Shown piece after piece: positions 3,760 to 11,545 of a stretch of DNA of 17,907 nucleotides. Position 1 is the first letter of the stretch; each line of letters opens with the position of its first letter. The translations under genes were made by a program, and so were the position numbers. The DNA is taken from the IMG/VR virus record IMGVR_UViG_3300008453_000586. One strand, 5' to 3'. This DNA is from a virus (Duplodnaviria; Heunggongvirae; Uroviricota; Caudoviricetes). The notes below the pieces were generated by a model. It made no database searches and was not told where the DNA came from. It saw only the letters and a list, made by a program, of their open reading frames with translations.

Positions 3760-3978
3760 ATGGGATTAAACAAAGAACAAATTTTATCAATCATCAGACA
3801 AGTATTAACAGCTACTGGTGCGATTTTAATTACAGCTGGTGTTATGAAAGAAGGAATGACCACAGAAATTCTAGGTACAATTATGACTCTTATATCAGCA
3901 GTATGGTCTATAGTTGATAAAACAGACGCTAATATTGTCAAAAAATTTGATAATATTCAAGCAAAATTAAAAAAATAA
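3760..3978 (+). CDS. Small two-TM protein, putative holin
   Basis: 72 aa with two hydrophobic helices and a basic C-terminus. Confidence 0.6.
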   Translation: MGLNKEQILSIIRQVLTATGAILITAGVMKEGMTTEILGTIMTLISAVWSIVDKTDANIVKKFDNIQAKLKK

Positions 3979-3986
3979 AAAAATAA

Positions 3987-4029
3987 TTGCAAAAAAACTT
4001 GACTTGTATTAAAACTTTTAGTATATTTG
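3987..4029 (+). promoter_or_regulatory. Host-type promoter heading tRNA array 1
   Basis: CTTG (3998-4001), 20 nt, TATATTTG (4022-4029); 3987-4015 is identical to 8078-8106. Confidence 0.75.
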
Positions 4030-4075
4030 CACATATTTATTAATCAACGGGGTAAAACCCACAAAAAAACAAGAA

Positions 4076-4153
4076 ATGAAAAATTTATTTAACTTAGAAG
4101 TCCTTTTAGTCTTATGTCTACTTTTAGTGGATAGGGTGGGTTATATTTGTTAA
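4076..4153 (+). CDS. Putative attenuator leader peptide 1 (MKNLFNLEVLLVLCLLLVDRVGYIC)
   Basis: ATG...TAA, 25 aa, below the ORF-track cutoff; Leu x8, Val x4, Cys x2; lies between promoter and terminator. Confidence 0.7.
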   Translation: MKNLFNLEVLLVLCLLLVDRVGYIC

Positions 4154-4177
4154 TGATTTTTCATAATTATAATAATT

Positions 4178-4209
4178 AAAACCCATTTAAGAAATTAGAT
4201 GGGTTTTTT
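4178..4209 (+). terminator. Intrinsic terminator/attenuator before array 1
   Basis: ACCCATTTAA-GAAA-TTAGATGGGT stem plus T6; 5' arm can alternatively pair with 4134-4142. Confidence 0.8.
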
Positions 4210-4222
4210 GTTTAAACATAAT

Positions 4223-4303
4223 GCCGTGATTCCTGAGTGGTCAAAGGGAGCGGACTGCAAATCCGCTGCGAAAGCTTCGTGGGTTCGAATCCCTCTCACG
4301 GCT
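4223..4303 (+). tRNA. tRNA-Cys(GCA) with long variable arm
   Basis: GCCGTGA/TCACGGC acceptor, GCGGA-CTGCAAA-TCCGC anticodon arm, U73, GC-GAAA-GC variable hairpin. Confidence 0.85.
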
Positions 4304-4317
4304 CTATAAGAGAAAAA

Positions 4318-4623
4318 ATGATGATGGAAAAAAACGAAATTAAAAAAGACTTGTATAAGTCAAAAAATCTGGCTAAGTTTAGCCACTACGTCAGCGGAAA
4401 CTTATATTACAAAGTTGAGCTACAAGATGGGCTGTATCAGTTCCCAATAAAAACTGTTGAAAAGAAATATGTGATGGATACTCGTGAAGTTGAAAAGATT
4501 CCAACACTGGTGTTAGCCGAAGATTTAGGTACCACAACATTTGATGCCGAAATAAAAGGTTCAGAATTAATAAGATGGATTGAAAGAGCCATCGACAATG
4601 AAGACTTCATCAAGGTAGGTTAA
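4318..4623 (+). CDS. Hypothetical protein
   Basis: Start at the ATG run 4318/4321/4324; the tracked upstream extension overlaps tRNA-Cys. Confidence 0.7.
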   Translation: MMMEKNEIKKDLYKSKNLAKFSHYVSGNLYYKVELQDGLYQFPIKTVEKKYVMDTREVEKIPTLVLAEDLGTTTFDAEIKGSELIRWIERAIDNEDFIKVG

Positions 4624-4636
4624 TTCCTACCCAACC

Positions 4637-4711
4637 GCACCCATAGCTCAGTTGGTTGAGAGCGCTTGTTTTACACGCAAGAGGTCACTGGTTCGAATCC
4701 AGTTGGGTGCA
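4637..4711 (+). tRNA. tRNA-Val(TAC)
   Basis: GCACCCA/TGGGTGC acceptor; CTTGT-TTTACAC-GCAAG anticodon arm; GGTTCGAATCC T arm. Confidence 0.92.
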
Positions 4712-4720
4712 CAACCACTT

Positions 4721-4750
4721 GGCCGAGTGGTGGAATGGTAGACACGCGGG
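4721..4750 (+). pseudogene. 5' half of tRNA-Leu (direct repeat of 5214-5244)
   Basis: GGCCGAGTGGTGGAATGGTAGACACGCGGG matches the 5' end of tRNA-Leu(TAA) except a 1-nt indel; it stops in the anticodon stem. Confidence 0.8.
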
Positions 4751-4784
4751 ATGACTTTTCTATCATATCTACATATTTATTAGT

Positions 4785-5210
4785 ATGGAAGATATAGAAT
4801 TCATCAAAGTGTGTCAAGAATCTGACACCATGGCAAAGGCGGCTGCAACTCTAGGGTTGCATTTTAATACCTTTAAACGTAAAGCAGTTAAATTAGGTTG
4901 TTACGAACCAAATCAAGCTGGTAAAGGTATTACTAAAAAAGATAATGGTAATAAAATACCATTAAAAGAAATATTAGAGGGTAAACACCCTTATTACCAA
5001 ACTAATAAATTAAGAAAAAGATTAATTAGTGAAGGTTACAAAACTGGCGAATGTGAAATTTGTCATATTACTGAATGGAATGGTCAAGCAATTACAATTG
5101 AGCTAGACCACATAGACGGTAATAGAAACAACCATTATTTAGAAAACTTGAAAATGTTGTGTCCAAACTGTCACAGTCAGACACCAACGTTTAGAGGTAA
5201 AAAAAGATAG
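4785..5210 (+). CDS. HNH homing endonuclease
   Basis: CEIC...ELDHIDGNRNNHYLENLKMLCPNCHSQT zinc-binding HNH motif. Confidence 0.92.
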   Translation: MEDIEFIKVCQESDTMAKAAATLGLHFNTFKRKAVKLGCYEPNQAGKGITKKDNGNKIPLKEILEGKHPYYQTNKLRKRLISEGYKTGECEICHITEWNGQAITIELDHIDGNRNNHYLENLKMLCPNCHSQTPTFRGKKR

Positions 5211-6121: not shown

Positions 6122-6150
6122 AAAAAGGGGTTATTAAAACCCCTTTTTTT
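6122..6150. terminator. Bidirectional terminator closing array 1 and the convergent gene
   Basis: AAAAAGGGGTT-ATTA-AAACCC-T8. Confidence 0.75.
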
Positions 6151-7648
6151 ATATTTTTATTTTTTTAGTGATAACACTATTGTTCTTCGTTTGTGCTACA
6201 ACAATGTACAGACCTTCCCTTAAAACAGATAAATCCAAATCTTCTGAAACTAACTGACCATACAAAGTGTATACCTTAACCTTAATAATTTCATCATCTT
6301 GTATATATATTCGCTTATTTACTATGTTTAAAGTTGCTACTGTATATGTTCGTAGTAAATCATTAAAACCTTCAGTGGTCCATGTATTCAAATTAGATGT
6401 TTGAATAGAATATAATCTATTGTTAAGCATAGGGTCTGGTAAATTAAGGTATAATTTATACGTACCCACTGGTAACCCTAAAGTTGTTAAGTTAGTAGTA
6501 ATGTTATAACTTGTTGACGTACATCTTTTAATATCGCTATCTATTTCAAAAGAATAATTTACATTTGTGCTAGTATTTTTACACACCAAAAATGCTTTTC
6601 TAGTTTTAAACAAATTAGCATACCCATAATTACCTATGTTAATTGTAAGAACACCATTGGTAATGTTTGAAGAATTTAACCTCAAATTATAACCTAAGTT
6701 TCTTTGCATGGTTGTAAAACAACCATTGGTTTGCCAGTTTGATATAACTGTTGGGAAATAATCTTTATTGATAAGACTCCAATTAAATCTATCCATTTCA
6801 ATCATAGCGTTTGAACAATCAGTTCTAGGGGCGTTGACCATATTACTTTCACCGCTTACTGGGTTATTAAAAGTGTTGGTTTGCCAATATGTTATGTCGC
6901 TAGAAGTAGGCTGTCCTTGTGAACTATTAACTACAAAGGTACCACTATCACCCCACGTTCCTAAAAATGAGTCATTGTAGAAACCTATTCTTCCGATAAA
7001 TGTGTTTCCATACATTTTTTGTTTAGCGAAAATATACCTAACTTGTAATGGAATTGAAGAATTAAAAGAACTAATCATTCTATCCATTACTTCTTTTCTG
7101 TTGCTCCACTGTGTGGTTGTCAATACTGTAAAATTACCATCGCCAAATTCAGAAGAACCTGTATAGTACCATTCACCATACTTACCTATAAACCCAGCTT
7201 GAATACTAACAATAACATCTCTGTTAGAGTTTATTACTGGTGCTAATTGCTGAATGTGAGCAAGTATTTGAGCTTTAGTTGGTTGGAAAACAGGTGTAGT
7301 ACTTGATGATGAATATGTAAATCTAACAATTACTTTAGCACCAGCATTCCTAATTCTATTAAAATCAGTTTGCATATTTGTTAAGTATGTTGATGTGATT
7401 GGTATACCTGTAATAAAATCTCTCAAAAAGAATTGTCTTTGTATTACGGTAATGTTTTCGTTGGTTCTATACCCACTCAATGTAGATTGAGATAATAGAT
7501 TATAACCACCAGACGAACCAGTAGAAGTGTAACGATAAAAACCTTTTTCTGGGTTAGAGATAACTACGTTGGATGAAGCGTAAGTTACATTTTGACTAGT
7601 TATCATTACTGAGAATGATAAAAATAATAGTAATAAAAATTTTTTCAT
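6149..7648 (-). CDS. Secreted DUF4874/DUF4832-like putative glycoside hydrolase with T9SS-type C-terminal domain
   Basis: Signal peptide; NPEKGFY, RFTY, QAGFIGKYGEW, GFYNDSFL motifs; C-terminal KVYTLYGQLV...GLYIV...TKKIKI. Confidence 0.7.
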   Translation of the reverse strand: MKKFLLLLFLSFSVMITSQNVTYASSNVVISNPEKGFYRYTSTGSSGGYNLLSQSTLSGYRTNENITVIQRQFFLRDFITGIPITSTYLTNMQTDFNRIRNAGAKVIVRFTYSSSSTTPVFQPTKAQILAHIQQLAPVINSNRDVIVSIQAGFIGKYGEWYYTGSSEFGDGNFTVLTTTQWSNRKEVMDRMISSFNSSIPLQVRYIFAKQKMYGNTFIGRIGFYNDSFLGTWGDSGTFVVNSSQGQPTSSDITYWQTNTFNNPVSGESNMVNAPRTDCSNAMIEMDRFNWSLINKDYFPTVISNWQTNGCFTTMQRNLGYNLRLNSSNITNGVLTINIGNYGYANLFKTRKAFLVCKNTSTNVNYSFEIDSDIKRCTSTSYNITTNLTTLGLPVGTYKLYLNLPDPMLNNRLYSIQTSNLNTWTTEGFNDLLRTYTVATLNIVNKRIYIQDDEIIKVKVYTLYGQLVSEDLDLSVLREGLYIVVAQTKNNSVITKKIKI

Positions 7649-8120: not shown

Positions 8121-8180
8121 CAATGTAATTAAAAAAAGGCAACCTCCTTTCTAAGTTACAAACAACGTTAAAACAAAAAA

Positions 8181-8310
8181 GTCTAGGTCCGTAGGGCTGT
8201 GACGGTATGTGAGGAAAGTGACTACGGAGCAAACGTATAACTGTATGAAACAAAGCAGATGTCCTTCGCATTTAAATTGAAAGTGTAACATATTTCAGCC
8301 GTCACTACTT
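8181..8310 (+). ncRNA. Unassigned structured RNA
   Basis: GTAG..TGACGG/CCGTCACTAC, TGTGAGGA/TCCTTCGCA, alternative TCCGTAG/CTACGGA; GC-richer than flanks; no ORF. Confidence 0.4.
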
Positions 8311-8379: not shown

Positions 8380-8469
8380 ATGAGAACTTTTGCTAACATA
8401 TTTGATTTTGCATTTTTTGCTGCCGAGGAGGATTGCTTCTCTGGAGGGTCGTGTGTTGCCAATAGTTAA
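8380..8469 (+). CDS. Putative attenuator leader peptide 2 (MRTFANIFDFAFFAAEEDCFSGGSCVANS)
   Basis: ATG...TAA, 29 aa; Phe x6, Ala x5, Glu x2, Asp x2; directly upstream of a terminator and array 2. Confidence 0.7.
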   Translation: MRTFANIFDFAFFAAEEDCFSGGSCVANS

Positions 8470-8497: not shown

Positions 8498-8528
8498 AAG
8501 CCTGACCCTAATAAGTCAGGCTTTTTTT
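8498..8528 (+). terminator. Intrinsic terminator/attenuator before array 2
   Basis: AAGCCTGAC-CCTAATAA-GTCAGGC-T7; 5' arm can alternatively pair with 8445-8454. Confidence 0.85.
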
Positions 8529-8541
8529 ATGTACAAAAATT

Positions 8542-8612
8542 GGAGCCATAGCTGAGGGGTTTAGCGCTGGCCTGAAGAGTCAGAGACACGGGGTCGACTC
8601 CCGTTGGTTCCA
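8542..8612 (+). tRNA. tRNA-Phe(GAA), G54 in T loop
   Basis: CTGGC-CTGAAGA-GTCAG anticodon arm; T arm ACGGG-GTCGACT-CCCGT. Confidence 0.82.
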
Positions 8613-8648
8613 CAAGAAAAAAAAAATTAAAAAAAAGTTCATTGAAAA

Positions 8649-8679
8649 TTTGGAGATTAAAAAATAAGTTGTATATTTG
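8649..8679 (+). promoter_or_regulatory. Internal host-type promoter in array 2
   Basis: TTTG (8649-8652), 19 nt, TATATTTG (8672-8679). Confidence 0.7.
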
Positions 8680-8693
8680 CAACGAAATTAAAA

Positions 8694-8766
8694 GGTACCT
8701 TAGCTCAGTTGGTAGAGCACTGCACTGAAGATGCAGGTGTCCCCAGTTCGAATCTGGGAGGTACCA
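8694..8766 (+). tRNA. tRNA-Phe(GAA)
   Basis: GGTACCT/AGGTACC acceptor; CTGCA-CTGAAGA-TGCAG anticodon arm. Confidence 0.93.
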
Positions 8767-8768
8767 CT

Positions 8769-8921
8769 AGGAATGTACGTTCAGCGGTCGAATTGGTCAT
8801 AAGAAATTATGGATGGTAAACAATTCGGGGGATGGGTTAAGTAATTAACTTGGGTAAAACATTTTCAGAACGACTCCCCTCATAAGGGAGAAGGTCACAG
8901 GTTCGAATCCTGTCATTCCTA
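8769..8921 (+). tRNA. tRNA(CAT) (elongator Met or Ile2) with an 85-nt D loop
   Basis: AGGAATG/CATTCCT acceptor, CGTTC/GAACG D stem, CTCCC-CTCATAA-GGGAG anticodon arm, canonical T arm. Confidence 0.75.
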
Positions 8922-8980
8922 CAAGGAGTAAGCCCCCGCGTAATCGCGATACGTGGGGAGTGCTGAAACGAAATAAGCAT

Positions 8981-9056
8981 GGCCCCGTCTTCTAAATTGG
9001 ACTAGGAAGCCACCCTTTCAAGGTGTGTAATGCGGGTTCGAATCCCGTCAGGGCTA
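8981..9056 (+). tRNA. tRNA-Glu(TTC)
   Basis: CACC-CTTTCAA-GGTG anticodon arm; canonical T arm; one acceptor mismatch. Confidence 0.85.
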
Positions 9057-9093
9057 CAATCTGGTTAAGATTCCAGTAATCAAAAATCTAAAT

Positions 9094-9166
9094 GGTCTAT
9101 TCGTCTAGTTGGTCAGGACGTGCCCCTTTCACGGGTAAAACACGGGTTCGAATCCCGTATAGACTA
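9094..9166 (+). tRNA. tRNA-Glu(TTC)
   Basis: GGTCTAT/ATAGACT acceptor; TGCCC-CTTTCAC-GGGTA anticodon arm. Confidence 0.92.
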
Positions 9167-9261
9167 CAATTAAGGAACGTGTGCAAATGCAATGGTCGGC
9201 ACAGTAACTAGGTGAAATAATAGACGTTGTTGACTTGAGAGTGGAACAGAAATTCTAATTT

Positions 9262-9341
9262 GGTCTATGGGGCTGCTTGGTGTGGCTACCTGACTGTCAC
9301 TCAGGAAAAACAGGTCGGTTCGAATCCGATATAGACCGCCA
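9262..9341 (+). tRNA. tRNA-Asp(GTC) with encoded CCA
   Basis: CCTGA-CTGTCAC-TCAGG anticodon arm, G73-CCA, 8-nt variable loop. Confidence 0.88.
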
Positions 9342-9350
9342 AATTAAATT

Positions 9351-9424
9351 CGAGGTAAGGTCCACTGGCGAAGGATGCACGCCTGTCACGCGTTGCGAAC
9401 TGGGTTCGAATCCCAGTATCTCGG
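9351..9424 (+). tRNA. tRNA-Asp(GTC)
   Basis: CGAGGTA/TATCTCG acceptor, ACGC-CTGTCAC-GCGT anticodon arm, G73. Confidence 0.85.
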
Positions 9425-9526
9425 CAAAAAAGGTGAGAGAAAAACTAAGTAAGTCTGCCAACCGAAAAGTGAAGTATTAAGGCCATTCTGCTCAATATAT
9501 GATGGCAGTTGTATTGAGAGTAGTTA

Positions 9527-9597
9527 AAGTGTATCGTCTAGGGGCTTAGGACGCTGGCGCGTAGCTGGAAACATTGGTTCGAAACCAATTGCACTTC
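9527..9597 (+). ncRNA. tRNA-Glu-like body lacking a 7-nt anticodon loop
   Basis: AAGTGTA/TGCACTT acceptor, Glu-type D arm GTCT..GGAC, CTGGC-GCGTA-GCTGG (5-nt loop), 4-nt variable loop, normal T arm. Confidence 0.65.
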
Positions 9598-9604
9598 TAA
9601 ATTT

Positions 9605-9678
9605 GGGGACTTAGCTCAGCTGGCTAGAGCGTCTGCCTTGCACGCAGAAGGTCGCGGGTTCGACTCCCGCAGTCTCCA
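9605..9678 (+). tRNA. tRNA-Ala(TGC)
   Basis: TCTGC-CTTGCAC-GCAGA anticodon arm; G3:U70. Confidence 0.93.
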
Positions 9679-9686
9679 CGATTGCT

Positions 9687-9810
9687 AACACGGTCGCTTC
9701 GTGTTGAAATTGTCAGATAACGTGCGGATAGAGGCAATCTCTGGAAAAAGAAGCACTGACTGGAAGGAAAGTCCGCAACTAAACCTGCTTACACTTTGGA
9801 ATGTAAAGTG
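9687..9810 (+). ncRNA. Unassigned structured RNA
   Basis: AACACG/CGTGTT, GTCA..GTGC/GCACTGAC, GCGGA/TCCGC and TTACA/TGTAA helices between two tRNAs. Confidence 0.35.
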
Positions 9811-9815
9811 ATTTT

Positions 9816-9937
9816 GGGCACGTGGTGTAATGGTAGCATGTTAAAAAACAAGTCATAACCTGACAAGGTTATCTTCAGCATTAAATGTTAATTTTCCTGT
9901 CACGAAAAAGATGTAGGTTCGAATCCTGCCGTGTCCG
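9816..9937 (+). tRNA. tRNA-Asp(GTC) with a 51-nt insertion at positions 26-29
   Basis: GGGCACG/CGTGTCC acceptor, G73, TTTTC-CTGTCAC-GAAAA anticodon arm; insert 9841-9891 carries ATAACCT-GACA-AGGTTAT-C-TTCAGCA. Confidence 0.75.
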
Positions 9938-9944
9938 CACAGAA

Positions 9945-10004
9945 ATGGTTAGTTGGTGTAACCGCTAATGGATTGACGAATCTATTAAGTTGCATCAACG
10001 CCAT
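9945..10004 (+). ncRNA. Long hairpin RNA between tRNAs
   Basis: GTTGGTGTAAC (9952-9962) pairs with GTTGCATCAAC (9989-9999); inner GATT-GACG-AATC hairpin. Confidence 0.35.
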
Positions 10005-10009
10005 AGGAA

Positions 10010-10082
10010 GGGGCCATAGTTTACTAGGCGAAAATAGTTGGCTTGCACCCAGCAGAACTCGGTTCGAATCCGAGTGGCTCCA
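10010..10082 (+). tRNA. tRNA-Ala(TGC)
   Basis: GTTGG-CTTGCAC-CCAGC anticodon arm; G3:U70. Confidence 0.88.
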
Positions 10083-10098
10083 CAAAAAAGAAAATAAA

Positions 10099-10129
10099 TT
10101 TGTTTAATTCAAATTAATGATTATCTTTG
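10099..10129 (+). promoter_or_regulatory. Host-type promoter
   Basis: TTTG, 19 nt, TATCTTTG. Confidence 0.65.
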
Positions 10130-10153
10130 TACCCTAATTTAAAAATATTAGAT

Positions 10154-10681
10154 ATGAAAATTAATAGAATTGAAGGTGTAAGTTATTCAGAACCAGGAGA
10201 AGGTGAATTTATTGTATGTGTTTTAGACCCATCAATAAATGGTGAGGAATATGTAAAGGATTTGAATGATAGTATTGAGGAATACAACAAAGATGTTGAA
10301 TTATTTGAAAGTAAGTTGCAAGAGTTTAAAGAATTGTACAAAACAAATCTTTCATTTGAAGCAATTACTGGTGTTGCGTTATTAAACGAACGTGAACCAA
10401 AATACCCATCAACGACACCGTTGGGTTTTAAAAATGTTCAAACAGCTTTTCCAGAAATTACGCTTGAAAGAGAAAGAAGAAAAACTGTTAACAAAGAAAA
10501 TAGGTTAGTTTATGATACGTTTATAAATGAAGCTAGAGAAAATGTTAAAAGAGAAATTGAACCATTCAAACAAGCTTTAATCGCTAAATGGCCTAAGTTT
10601 AAAAGATGGGCGGCTAGTGATTGGGGTAGAACAATTTGGTACAAATTTGAATTAACAACTTTTAAATATGTGTCAGAATAA
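10154..10681 (+). CDS. Hypothetical protein, partly coiled-coil
   Basis: ATG at 10154 downstream of the promoter; no recognisable motif. Confidence 0.7.
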   Translation: MKINRIEGVSYSEPGEGEFIVCVLDPSINGEEYVKDLNDSIEEYNKDVELFESKLQEFKELYKTNLSFEAITGVALLNEREPKYPSTTPLGFKNVQTAFPEITLERERRKTVNKENRLVYDTFINEARENVKREIEPFKQALIAKWPKFKRWAASDWGRTIWYKFELTTFKYVSE

Positions 10682-10684
10682 AAT

Positions 10685-10756
10685 GGGGTCATAGCTCAAC
10701 GGCTGAGCGCTTCCCTTGCACGGAAGAGGATGTGGGTTCGAATCTCATTGGCTCCA
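10685..10756 (+). tRNA. tRNA-Ala(TGC)
   Basis: CTTCC-CTTGCAC-GGAAG anticodon arm; G3:U70. Confidence 0.9.
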
Positions 10757-10777
10757 CTAAATTTAAAATTAAAAATC

Positions 10778-11545
10778 ATGAAAACTAGAATTGCCCCATC
10801 ACCAACGGGCAAATTTCATTTAGGGACATTACGTACTGCTTTATTTAACTATTTGTTAAGTAAATCAAACAATGGTGTTTTTATCCTAAGAATAGACGAT
10901 ACAGATTTGTCTAGGAACAACGATTCAGATATAGACTTCATTCATCAACAAATGAAACATTTTGGTTTAGACTATGATGTAACATTTAACCAAAGCAGCA
11001 GACTTGATAGATACAAACAAGTTGCAACTGCCATAGGGTTCAAAAAAGATGATGGAACGTTAAACGTAAACATGGGTGACTATGATATGGTTATTCTTAG
11101 AGATAACGGTTATCCAACCTATAACTTCGCATCAATATTAGATGACTATGATTATGACATTACTGACATTATTAGAGGTGTAGACCATATTACCAACTTA
11201 CCAAAGCAACAAACGTTGTGGGATATGATTTGCAATGTATATGGTCAAAAAAAATTTCCAAATGTACAACACGCTGGGTTATTGTTTTATAAAGGTGCCA
11301 AATTATCTAAAAGAACTGGTAACTGTACTACTGATGATTATAATGATTATGACGTTGATGCGTTACTAAATTGGTTATTCAAATTTGGTTGGTCACATCC
11401 TAACGCTAATTTTGACAAAGATTTTCCAATTTTAAAGATGGGTGATATGATAAAACACTTTATAGATGGTCATATTGTAAAGTCGAATTCAAGTATTGAC
11501 ATAAACAAATTAATATGGTTAAATAAAAAACATAAAACAAAATAA
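10778..11545 (+). CDS. Minimal glutamyl-tRNA synthetase-like protein (catalytic domain only; GluRS/GluQ family)
   Basis: RIAPSPTG..HLGT (HIGH), LRIDDTD, IIRGVDH, KLSKR (KMSKS), LLNWLFKFGWS; 255 aa with no anticodon-binding domain and no Cys/Zn insertion. Confidence 0.88.
   Translation: MKTRIAPSPTGKFHLGTLRTALFNYLLSKSNNGVFILRIDDTDLSRNNDSDIDFIHQQMKHFGLDYDVTFNQSSRLDRYKQVATAIGFKKDDGTLNVNMGDYDMVILRDNGYPTYNFASILDDYDYDITDIIRGVDHITNLPKQQTLWDMICNVYGQKKFPNVQHAGLLFYKGAKLSKRTGNCTTDDYNDYDVDALLNWLFKFGWSHPNANFDKDFPILKMGDMIKHFIDGHIVKSNSSIDINKLIWLNKKHKTK

Follow-up and report, generated by a model that had tools for sequence, protein, structure and literature searches.

A glutamate-free miniature glutamyl-tRNA synthetase encoded behind a phage tRNA array, a candidate emergency enzyme for charging tRNA-Glu

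The DNA analyzed here is a stretch of 17,907 nucleotides (the window) from a virus of the class Caudoviricetes, IMG/VR record IMGVR_UViG_3300008453_000586. On its plus strand, at 10778..11545, lies a gene of 255 codons plus stop whose product resembles glutamyl-tRNA synthetase (GluRS) and combines a Rossmann catalytic fold with a stem-contact fold; we refer to it as mini-GluRS. The start was placed at ATG 10778, which agrees with the N-termini of homologues (MKTR...), and the longer open reading frame (ORF) from ATG 10730 was rejected, since homologues begin at MKTR... and its start falls inside a tRNA-Ala gene. Directly upstream on the same strand, an array of tRNA genes (8542..10757) runs through two tRNA-Phe, two tRNA-Glu(UUC), two tRNA-Asp, one tRNA-Thr and three tRNA-Ala genes before reaching the mini-GluRS gene, the 3' end of the last tRNA-Ala (10685-10757, plus strand) lying 20 nt before the ATG. 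The second tRNA-Glu(UUC) is found at 9094-9167 (plus strand). The first, at 8981-9057 (plus strand), was labeled tRNA-SeC(tca) by ARAGORN; a selenocysteine tRNA or opal suppressor was ruled out by its near-identity to the tRNA-Glu(UUC) at 8165-8240 of the related locus L001, with the anticodon loop CUUUCAA. A further tRNA-Asp(GUC), the third of the window, is located at 14413-14490. Ahead of the array, a 29-codon leader ORF (8380..8469, plus strand) contains 5 Phe, 5 Ala, 2 Glu and 2 Asp codons, and between this ORF and the first tRNA-Phe a terminator-like hairpin of 9 pairs (8498-8523) is followed by a T-run (8498..8530 in all, plus strand).

The mini-GluRS protein retains the catalytic hallmarks of its class. 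The HIGH-type motif reads HLGT (residues 14-17; 10817..10828, plus strand) and the KMSKS-type motif reads KLSKR (residues 175-179; 11300..11314, plus strand). Among the 121 closest relatives, H14 is present in 113 and G16 in all, and K175, S177 and K178 are invariant (121/121). The retained stem-contact fold (GWSHP...KLIWLNKKH; 11345..11542, plus strand) includes FGWS at residues 203-206 and KLIWLNKKH at residues 244-252, and ends in a short basic C-terminal tail. The Pfam family PF00749, the catalytic domain of GluRS and GlnRS, matches in two stretches (E=2.5e-45), while PF19269 gives no match. The best profile match is bacterial GltX (TIGR00464): positions 3-86 and 172-315 of its 470 are matched at 215.7 bits, below the equivalog cut-off of that model (289.95 bits). 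The protein thus stops near profile position 315, where an anticodon-binding domain would be expected to start. Alignment to E. coli GluRS (8i9i) pairs residues 1-83 with 3-86 and residues 102-250 with 168-308, so that about 81 residues of the connective peptide (CP) and zinc region, and everything beyond about residue 310, are missing. From the alignment gaps, the roughly 80-residue module for the connective peptide, acceptor binding and zinc is replaced by a 16-residue beta-hairpin linker (residues 86-101; 11033..11080, plus strand), and the protein has only two Cys residues in its whole length. Across the family, the CP region spans 15-21 residues. An AlphaFold2 model built from 15 relatives (pLDDT 93.5, pTM 0.91) places strands at 95-98 and 103-107 in the linker region, and superposes with TMq values of 0.82-0.87 on bacterial GluRS structures and 0.68-0.72 on glutamyl-queuosine tRNA synthetase (GluQRS).

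In Thermus thermophilus GluRS, glutamate is held by a network of Arg5, Tyr187, Asp195 and Arg205 (PMC2978374). By motif alignment, these pair with R4, Y115, D123 and R133 of mini-GluRS, all four of which are invariant in 121/121 relatives. Judged by its sequence, mini-GluRS appears to be a stripped-down GluRS core that retains the glutamate pocket and the ATP site and is predicted to be catalytically intact. Much of this outline had been anticipated by a preliminary description, made from the letters of the window alone, of a 255-residue ORF carrying HLGT, KLSKR and FGWS...KLIWLNKKH; translation, PF00749 and the GltX profile agree with it. Its statement that the anticodon-binding domain is absent and most of the CP/zinc region gone is confirmed by the same profile and by the 8i9i alignment, and the gene does lie at the end of a Glu/Asp tRNA array in a window with three tRNA-Asp genes, as it had claimed. 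Structure prediction, which it had suggested as a check, returned a confident GluRS-like fold (pLDDT 93.5, TMq up to 0.87).

The most unusual property of mini-GluRS is its composition. The 255 residues include 0 Glu and 31 Asp (12.2%, a doubling). In the 15 other ORFs of the window, Glu makes up 6.8% and Asp 5.9% of the residues on average, which would predict about 17 Glu residues in a protein of this size, P(0)=1.7e-8. Counted as codons, GAA and GAG occur 0 times in frame against 15.7 expected, whereas their out-of-frame occurrences in the two other frames are normal (4, 4, 2 and 0 observed versus 3.0, 4.1, 2.2 and 1.0 expected). These normal counts rule out avoidance of GAA/GAG as DNA motifs. 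Since only the in-frame codons are missing, selection must act on decoding or translation. Within the family the trait recurs. The number of Glu residues is bimodal in the 121 closest relatives, with 2 or fewer in 28 of them (none at all in seven) and a second mode at 12-20. The tree distributes the Glu-poor members over five or more separate clades and shows 10 state changes; loss of Glu in the mini family therefore arose at least five times. In the wider clade of phage GluRS-like proteins that have no anticodon domain, 6 of 33 representatives contain 0 Glu.

Several observations argue that mini-GluRS is an established protein family. A search for proteins of near length returned 3414 matches, the best 120 of which are all 243-284 aa long and 59-97% identical, some of them encoded on 348- and 376-kb contigs. 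Among longer proteins, the nearest true GluRS scores 166 bits at 30-41% identity, compared to 333-572 bits inside the mini family. IMG/VR contains 32 mini-GluRS loci, on viral contigs that reach 483 kb, and the 634-kb phage LR745206.1 encodes a copy with 64% identity. Comparison to the 93% identical copy of locus L004 gives dN=0.043 and dS=0.80 (nonsynonymous and synonymous divergence; dN/dS about 0.05), the mark of purifying selection. The preliminary description had allowed that homologues might be full-length and the ORF a recent truncation; all close homologues proved to be short, and a recent truncation or pseudogene is ruled out by more than 120 short homologues, by the low dN/dS and by the lack of a close full-length relative. 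The sole longer close relative, the metagenomic protein P0122 (468 aa), contains the mini-GluRS core at 81-333 with 62% identity; its additional N- and C-terminal stretches match no Pfam family and gave no functional clue, and a fusion or an artefact of gene calling may account for it.

When cluster representatives were searched exhaustively, the related proteins could be arranged in an architectural series. Full GltX proteins of the usual full length have a CP of about 70 (65-80) aa and an anticodon domain; a short-CP form of 410-445 aa combines a CP of about 33 aa with an anticodon domain; a form of 280-330 aa has the 33-aa CP and no anticodon domain; and the mini form, to which the window gene belongs, has a CP of 6-21 aa, no anticodon domain and a total length of 250-285 aa. 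Three of the short-CP, domain-less relatives sit on contigs resembling phage DNA. In an IQ-TREE phylogeny of 50 sequences, the mini clade (SH-aLRT 100) is nested in a domain-less viral clade (84-90); at the base of this clade stands a member that still has the anticodon domain. A second pair with minimal CP occurs elsewhere in the clade, indicating that reduction of the CP module took place more than once. Full-length GluRS genes from related phages fall on a different branch from the mini clade, and in free trees the GluQRS proteins of Salmonella and Acinetobacter stand apart on a long branch.

The avoidance of the cognate amino acid is shared by undoubted synthetases of a related phage. In LR745206.1, the IleRS (735 aa, 674 bits, above the TIGR00392 cut-off) contains 0 Ile, the GlnRS (532 aa) 1 Gln and the GluRS (492 aa) 6 Glu next to 58 Asp, the latter two also scoring above their model cut-offs. 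Two reduced forms follow the same pattern, a ValRS-like protein of 443 aa with 0 Val and a MetRS-like protein of 457 aa in which the initiator is the only Met. These five genes of LR745206.1 (W01) are found at L117 (1048-3255), L118 (396-1769 and 2579-3910, minus strand), L065 and L063. In all 84 other full-length GltX representatives, Glu makes up at least 2% of the residues.

We searched four whole records, namely LR745206.1 and the related genomes G001, G002 and G003, for full-length GluRS, PF19269, TGT and QueC. A full-length GluRS is present in LR745206.1 (634 kb) and G002 (483 kb), where the mini form has 21 and 20 Glu, respectively. In these two genomes the Glu-poor enzyme is the full-length GluRS, and the mini form has a normal Glu content. 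G001 (464 kb, 98% complete) and G003 (368 kb, 100% complete) have neither a full-length GluRS nor a PF19269 match, and their mini forms have 12 and 3 Glu. For G001 and G003, the lack of a PF19269 match also rules out a split enzyme with its anticodon domain encoded elsewhere. The complementarity across the four genomes hints that the mini form can stand in for full-length GluRS.

A Glu-free composition makes sense only for an enzyme that is needed during a shortage of Glu-tRNA(Glu). Since a Glu-free protein can be translated without Glu-tRNA(Glu), the simplest job for it is to make Glu-tRNA(Glu). We therefore favor, as an evenly balanced proposition, that mini-GluRS is an anticodon-blind emergency GluRS which restores scarce Glu-tRNA(Glu) and is probably co-transcribed with the phage tRNA-Glu genes. 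Among the three options of the preliminary description, this corresponds to charging without reading the anticodon, which has gained support from a Glu-free self-avoidance like that of true synthetases, while modification of tRNA-Asp in the manner of GluQ has been weakened. In the proposed course of events, host defense, stringent conditions or the phage's own demand would exhaust Glu-tRNA(Glu). Because it contains no glutamate, mini-GluRS could still be made by the ribosomes at this point and would then restart charging, activating glutamate and transferring it to tRNA-Glu of the phage and probably to host copies as well. The catch-22 of an enzyme whose own product is required for its synthesis would thereby be escaped. 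Recognition of tRNA-Glu might rely on the acceptor end and the D-arm instead of the anticodon.

Such anticodon-blind charging has an engineered counterpart. In 2009, Dubois et al. (cited in PMC4393105) reportedly found that a C-truncated E. coli GluRS without its anticodon-binding domains was still specific for tRNA-Glu. The domain boundary at the C-terminal end is the same as in mini-GluRS; however, the laboratory construct, said to comprise residues 1-314, has the CP/zinc module, whereas the phage protein is natural, conserved and devoid of the CP as well. Major determinants of tRNA-Glu reside in the acceptor stem and the augmented D-helix (PMC9976931). Together with the truncated E. coli enzyme, this makes anticodon-blind charging plausible. 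Compared to bacterial GltX (TIGR00464; PDB 7k86, 8i9i, 6b1p), mini-GluRS shares the Rossmann fold, the HIGH and KMSKS motifs, the Arg/Asp/Arg/Tyr pocket and the stem-contact fold, and differs by the loss of the CP/zinc insertion of about 80 residues and of the anticodon-binding domain of about 150 residues, and by having 0 Glu. The depletion itself has a parallel in the low cognate bias of amino-acid biosynthetic enzymes, which are depleted in their own product and so avoid a starvation catch-22 (Alves and Savageau 2005; Fasani and Savageau 2014, PMC4209129). In both cases an enzyme that restores a supply is poor in its own amino acid. The phage case differs in that the loss is total (0 residues), that the enzyme is viral and charges tRNA, and that the limiting substance would be charged tRNA, not the free amino acid.

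The genetic context is compatible with coordinated expression. The mini-GluRS gene appears to be co-transcribed with the two tRNA-Glu genes, behind the leader peptide and the terminator, and it is possible that the leader ORF acts as a charged-tRNA sensor for the whole unit of tRNA array and mini-GluRS gene. L001, L004 and L005, the closest relatives, share the array order ending in the mini-GluRS gene. In a scan for sigma-70 promoters and terminators around the mini-GluRS gene, sites were no commoner than in shuffled sequence, except for the hairpin at 8498-8523. A search of the other loci for a Glu-rich leader peptide immediately 5' of the mini-GluRS gene found none.

Several observations weigh against an emergency GluRS. 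Adjacency to the tRNA array is limited to the closest subclade, and no such array lies near the members with 60-66% identity. About two thirds of the family members have a normal Glu content. The complementarity with full-length GluRS rests on four genomes, of which G001 fits weakly, having no full-length GluRS and yet 12 Glu in its mini form. In the two genomes where it occurs beside a full-length GluRS, the mini form is not depleted of Glu, which would fit a non-redundant second function. An approximately unbiased (AU) test does not reject a joint clade of GluQRS and the viral domain-less proteins (p=0.579). To our knowledge, no class I synthetase functions without the CP/acceptor-binding insertion. 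GluRS also relies strongly on U34, U35, C36 and A37 as identity elements (PMC9976931), and loss of the anticodon domain should accordingly cost much activity and specificity.

The removal of both tRNA-recognition modules raises the question of whether tRNA is the acceptor at all. Mini-GluRS might instead be a glutamate ligase with an open active site that passes Glu-AMP to a protein, carrier, small molecule or nucleotide, in the way of MshC or other ligases derived from synthetases. We consider this unlikely. In most subclades the mini-GluRS gene does not lie beside tRNA genes, and in two genomes the mini form coexists with a full-length GluRS, both of which would favor such a ligase. However, the conserved stem-contact fold, a tRNA-binding element of class I enzymes, has been retained together with the basic C-terminal tail, and no conserved partner gene, nor any consistently adjacent neighbor, was found across 35 loci. 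In addition, the Glu-free trait mirrors that of true synthetases and signals a shortage of Glu-tRNA rather than a metabolic role.

A link to GluQRS was among the earlier suggestions, and we now regard it as quite improbable. Mini-GluRS would in this case activate glutamate independently of tRNA and attach it as an ester to a modified wobble base, such as queuosine in tRNA-Asp or another hypermodified nucleoside, for instance to shield phage or host tRNAs from anticodon nucleases. There are genuine likenesses to GluQRS/YadB (TIGR03838; PDB 1nzj, 4a91): both proteins are GluRS-derived cores ending at the same boundary before the anticodon-binding domain, and both occur in some genomes as paralogues beside a normal GluRS, as the mini form does in LR745206.1 and G002. 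The three tRNA-Asp(GUC) genes of the window would provide substrates, and the AU test leaves room for common descent. Nevertheless, the TIGR03838 score is 120 bits against a cut-off of 276.7, the other GluQRS models also stay below their cut-offs, and GltX scores 215.7; on these profile scores, mini-GluRS falls outside the GluQRS family by the NCBI definition. The model likewise resembles GluRS (TMq 0.87) more than GluQRS (0.72). The CP module retained in GluQRS has about 58 residues (57-58 in Salmonella and Acinetobacter) and a zinc site, whereas the CP of mini-GluRS is down to 16 residues and the CP/zinc module is gone. In two proteobacterial records the GluQRS gene follows dksA. The phage proteins form a large viral clade of their own. 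The 98% complete genome G001 encodes a mini-GluRS and only seven tRNAs, among them tRNA-Glu and no tRNA-Asp, and neither TGT nor QueC was found in the four related genomes. Finally, a Glu-free composition has no obvious rationale in a modifier of tRNA-Asp.

Very unlikely is an accessory or regulatory protein that works in trans with host GluRS or its anticodon domain, titrates tRNA-Glu or glutamate, or makes an Ap4A-type signal: the mini form might catalyze poorly on its own, and the truncated E. coli GluRS of Dubois et al. (2009) was reportedly stimulated by its free distal domain, but G001 and G003 encode no separate PF19269 domain, and the invariant substrate-binding and transition-state residues argue for real glutamate catalysis.

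Should mini-GluRS indeed be an emergency GluRS that charges tRNA-Glu, it would lower the known minimum required of a class I synthetase, with a bearing on models that derive synthetases from small catalytic cores, and it would offer a compact, anticodon-blind part for genetic-code engineering. We propose more tentatively, and with somewhat less than even confidence, that it is the smallest natural aminoacyl-tRNA synthetase and belongs to a general strategy of phages, whose synthetases would be freed of their own amino acid so as to reboot translation once host defense or the infection itself has depleted a specific charged tRNA. The loss of cognate residues in mini-GluRS and in the five LR745206.1 synthetases suggests that such enzymes are restart devices for the loss of charged tRNA and not merely boosters of translation. 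This idea would supply a testable reason for the presence of synthetases in phages, and would make depletion of charged tRNA a common battleground between phage and host. Huge phages, including those of Bacteroidota, carry up to 15 synthetases and many tRNAs, and charging of phage tRNAs has been proposed (Al-Shayeb et al. 2020, PMC7162821); domain-less mini forms and cognate avoidance are not described in the part of that account consulted. The published record covers huge-phage synthetases (PMC7162821) and GluQRS (PMC9437257), and the literature as searched contains no phage mini-GluRS family, no cognate-free synthetases and no application of low cognate bias to synthetases or phages.

The remainder of the window is AT-rich phage DNA (35% GC) with 20 tRNA genes in total, and its other genes include a holin, an HNH endonuclease, an RlaP-type nucleotidyltransferase and an HD phosphohydrolase. 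At their C-termini, two large proteins carry a Por_Secre_tail, the sorting domain of type IX secretion that is typical of Bacteroidota; one, at 6149-7648 on the minus strand, also contains DUF4874 and DUF4832, and the other is encoded at 11630-13309 on the plus strand, downstream of the mini-GluRS gene. Since these proteins occur together with host-like tRNA-Glu genes, the sequence points to a Bacteroidota host for the phage. All nine phage tRNA-Glu genes examined have G1:U72 and A73, and we entertained the notion that this reflects an adaptation to the missing CP module. It was dropped as a host trait: 24 of the 28 distinct chromosomal tRNA-Glu sequences in 41 Bacteroidota genomes have the G1:U72 pair. 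The phage pair is thus no special feature but host mimicry, in support of a Bacteroidota host.

Some of the tRNA-like genes of the window are peculiar. According to ARAGORN, the tRNA-Asp(GUC) at 14413-14490 has its anticodon at the unusual position 32, and a tRNA-like gene at 15418-15494 has a two-base 'anticodon' (tc). Similar odd genes are present in L001, L004 and L005; these genes could be pseudo-tRNAs, or their tRNAs could have unusual loops. The HNH endonuclease gene (4785-5210) lies within the first tRNA array, flanked by tRNA-Val and tRNA-Leu, and may be a homing element.

In 11 of the 35 loci, a reduced LeuRS-like gene (417-422 aa) lies upstream of the mini-GluRS gene at a distance of 6-10 kb. 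Examples of these cores, at L001:3828-5096, L011:2155-3414, L119:832-2100 and L120:819-2087, score 390-400 bits on TIGR00396; they have neither the editing domain nor the C-terminal part, and their Leu content is mildly lowered (18-29 residues). At L076 (contig PBMB01000001.1, a Chloroflexota metagenome-assembled genome), ten tRNA-Glu(UUC) genes, which differ in their acceptor stems, are arranged in tandem within 900 bp, at 3901-4804.

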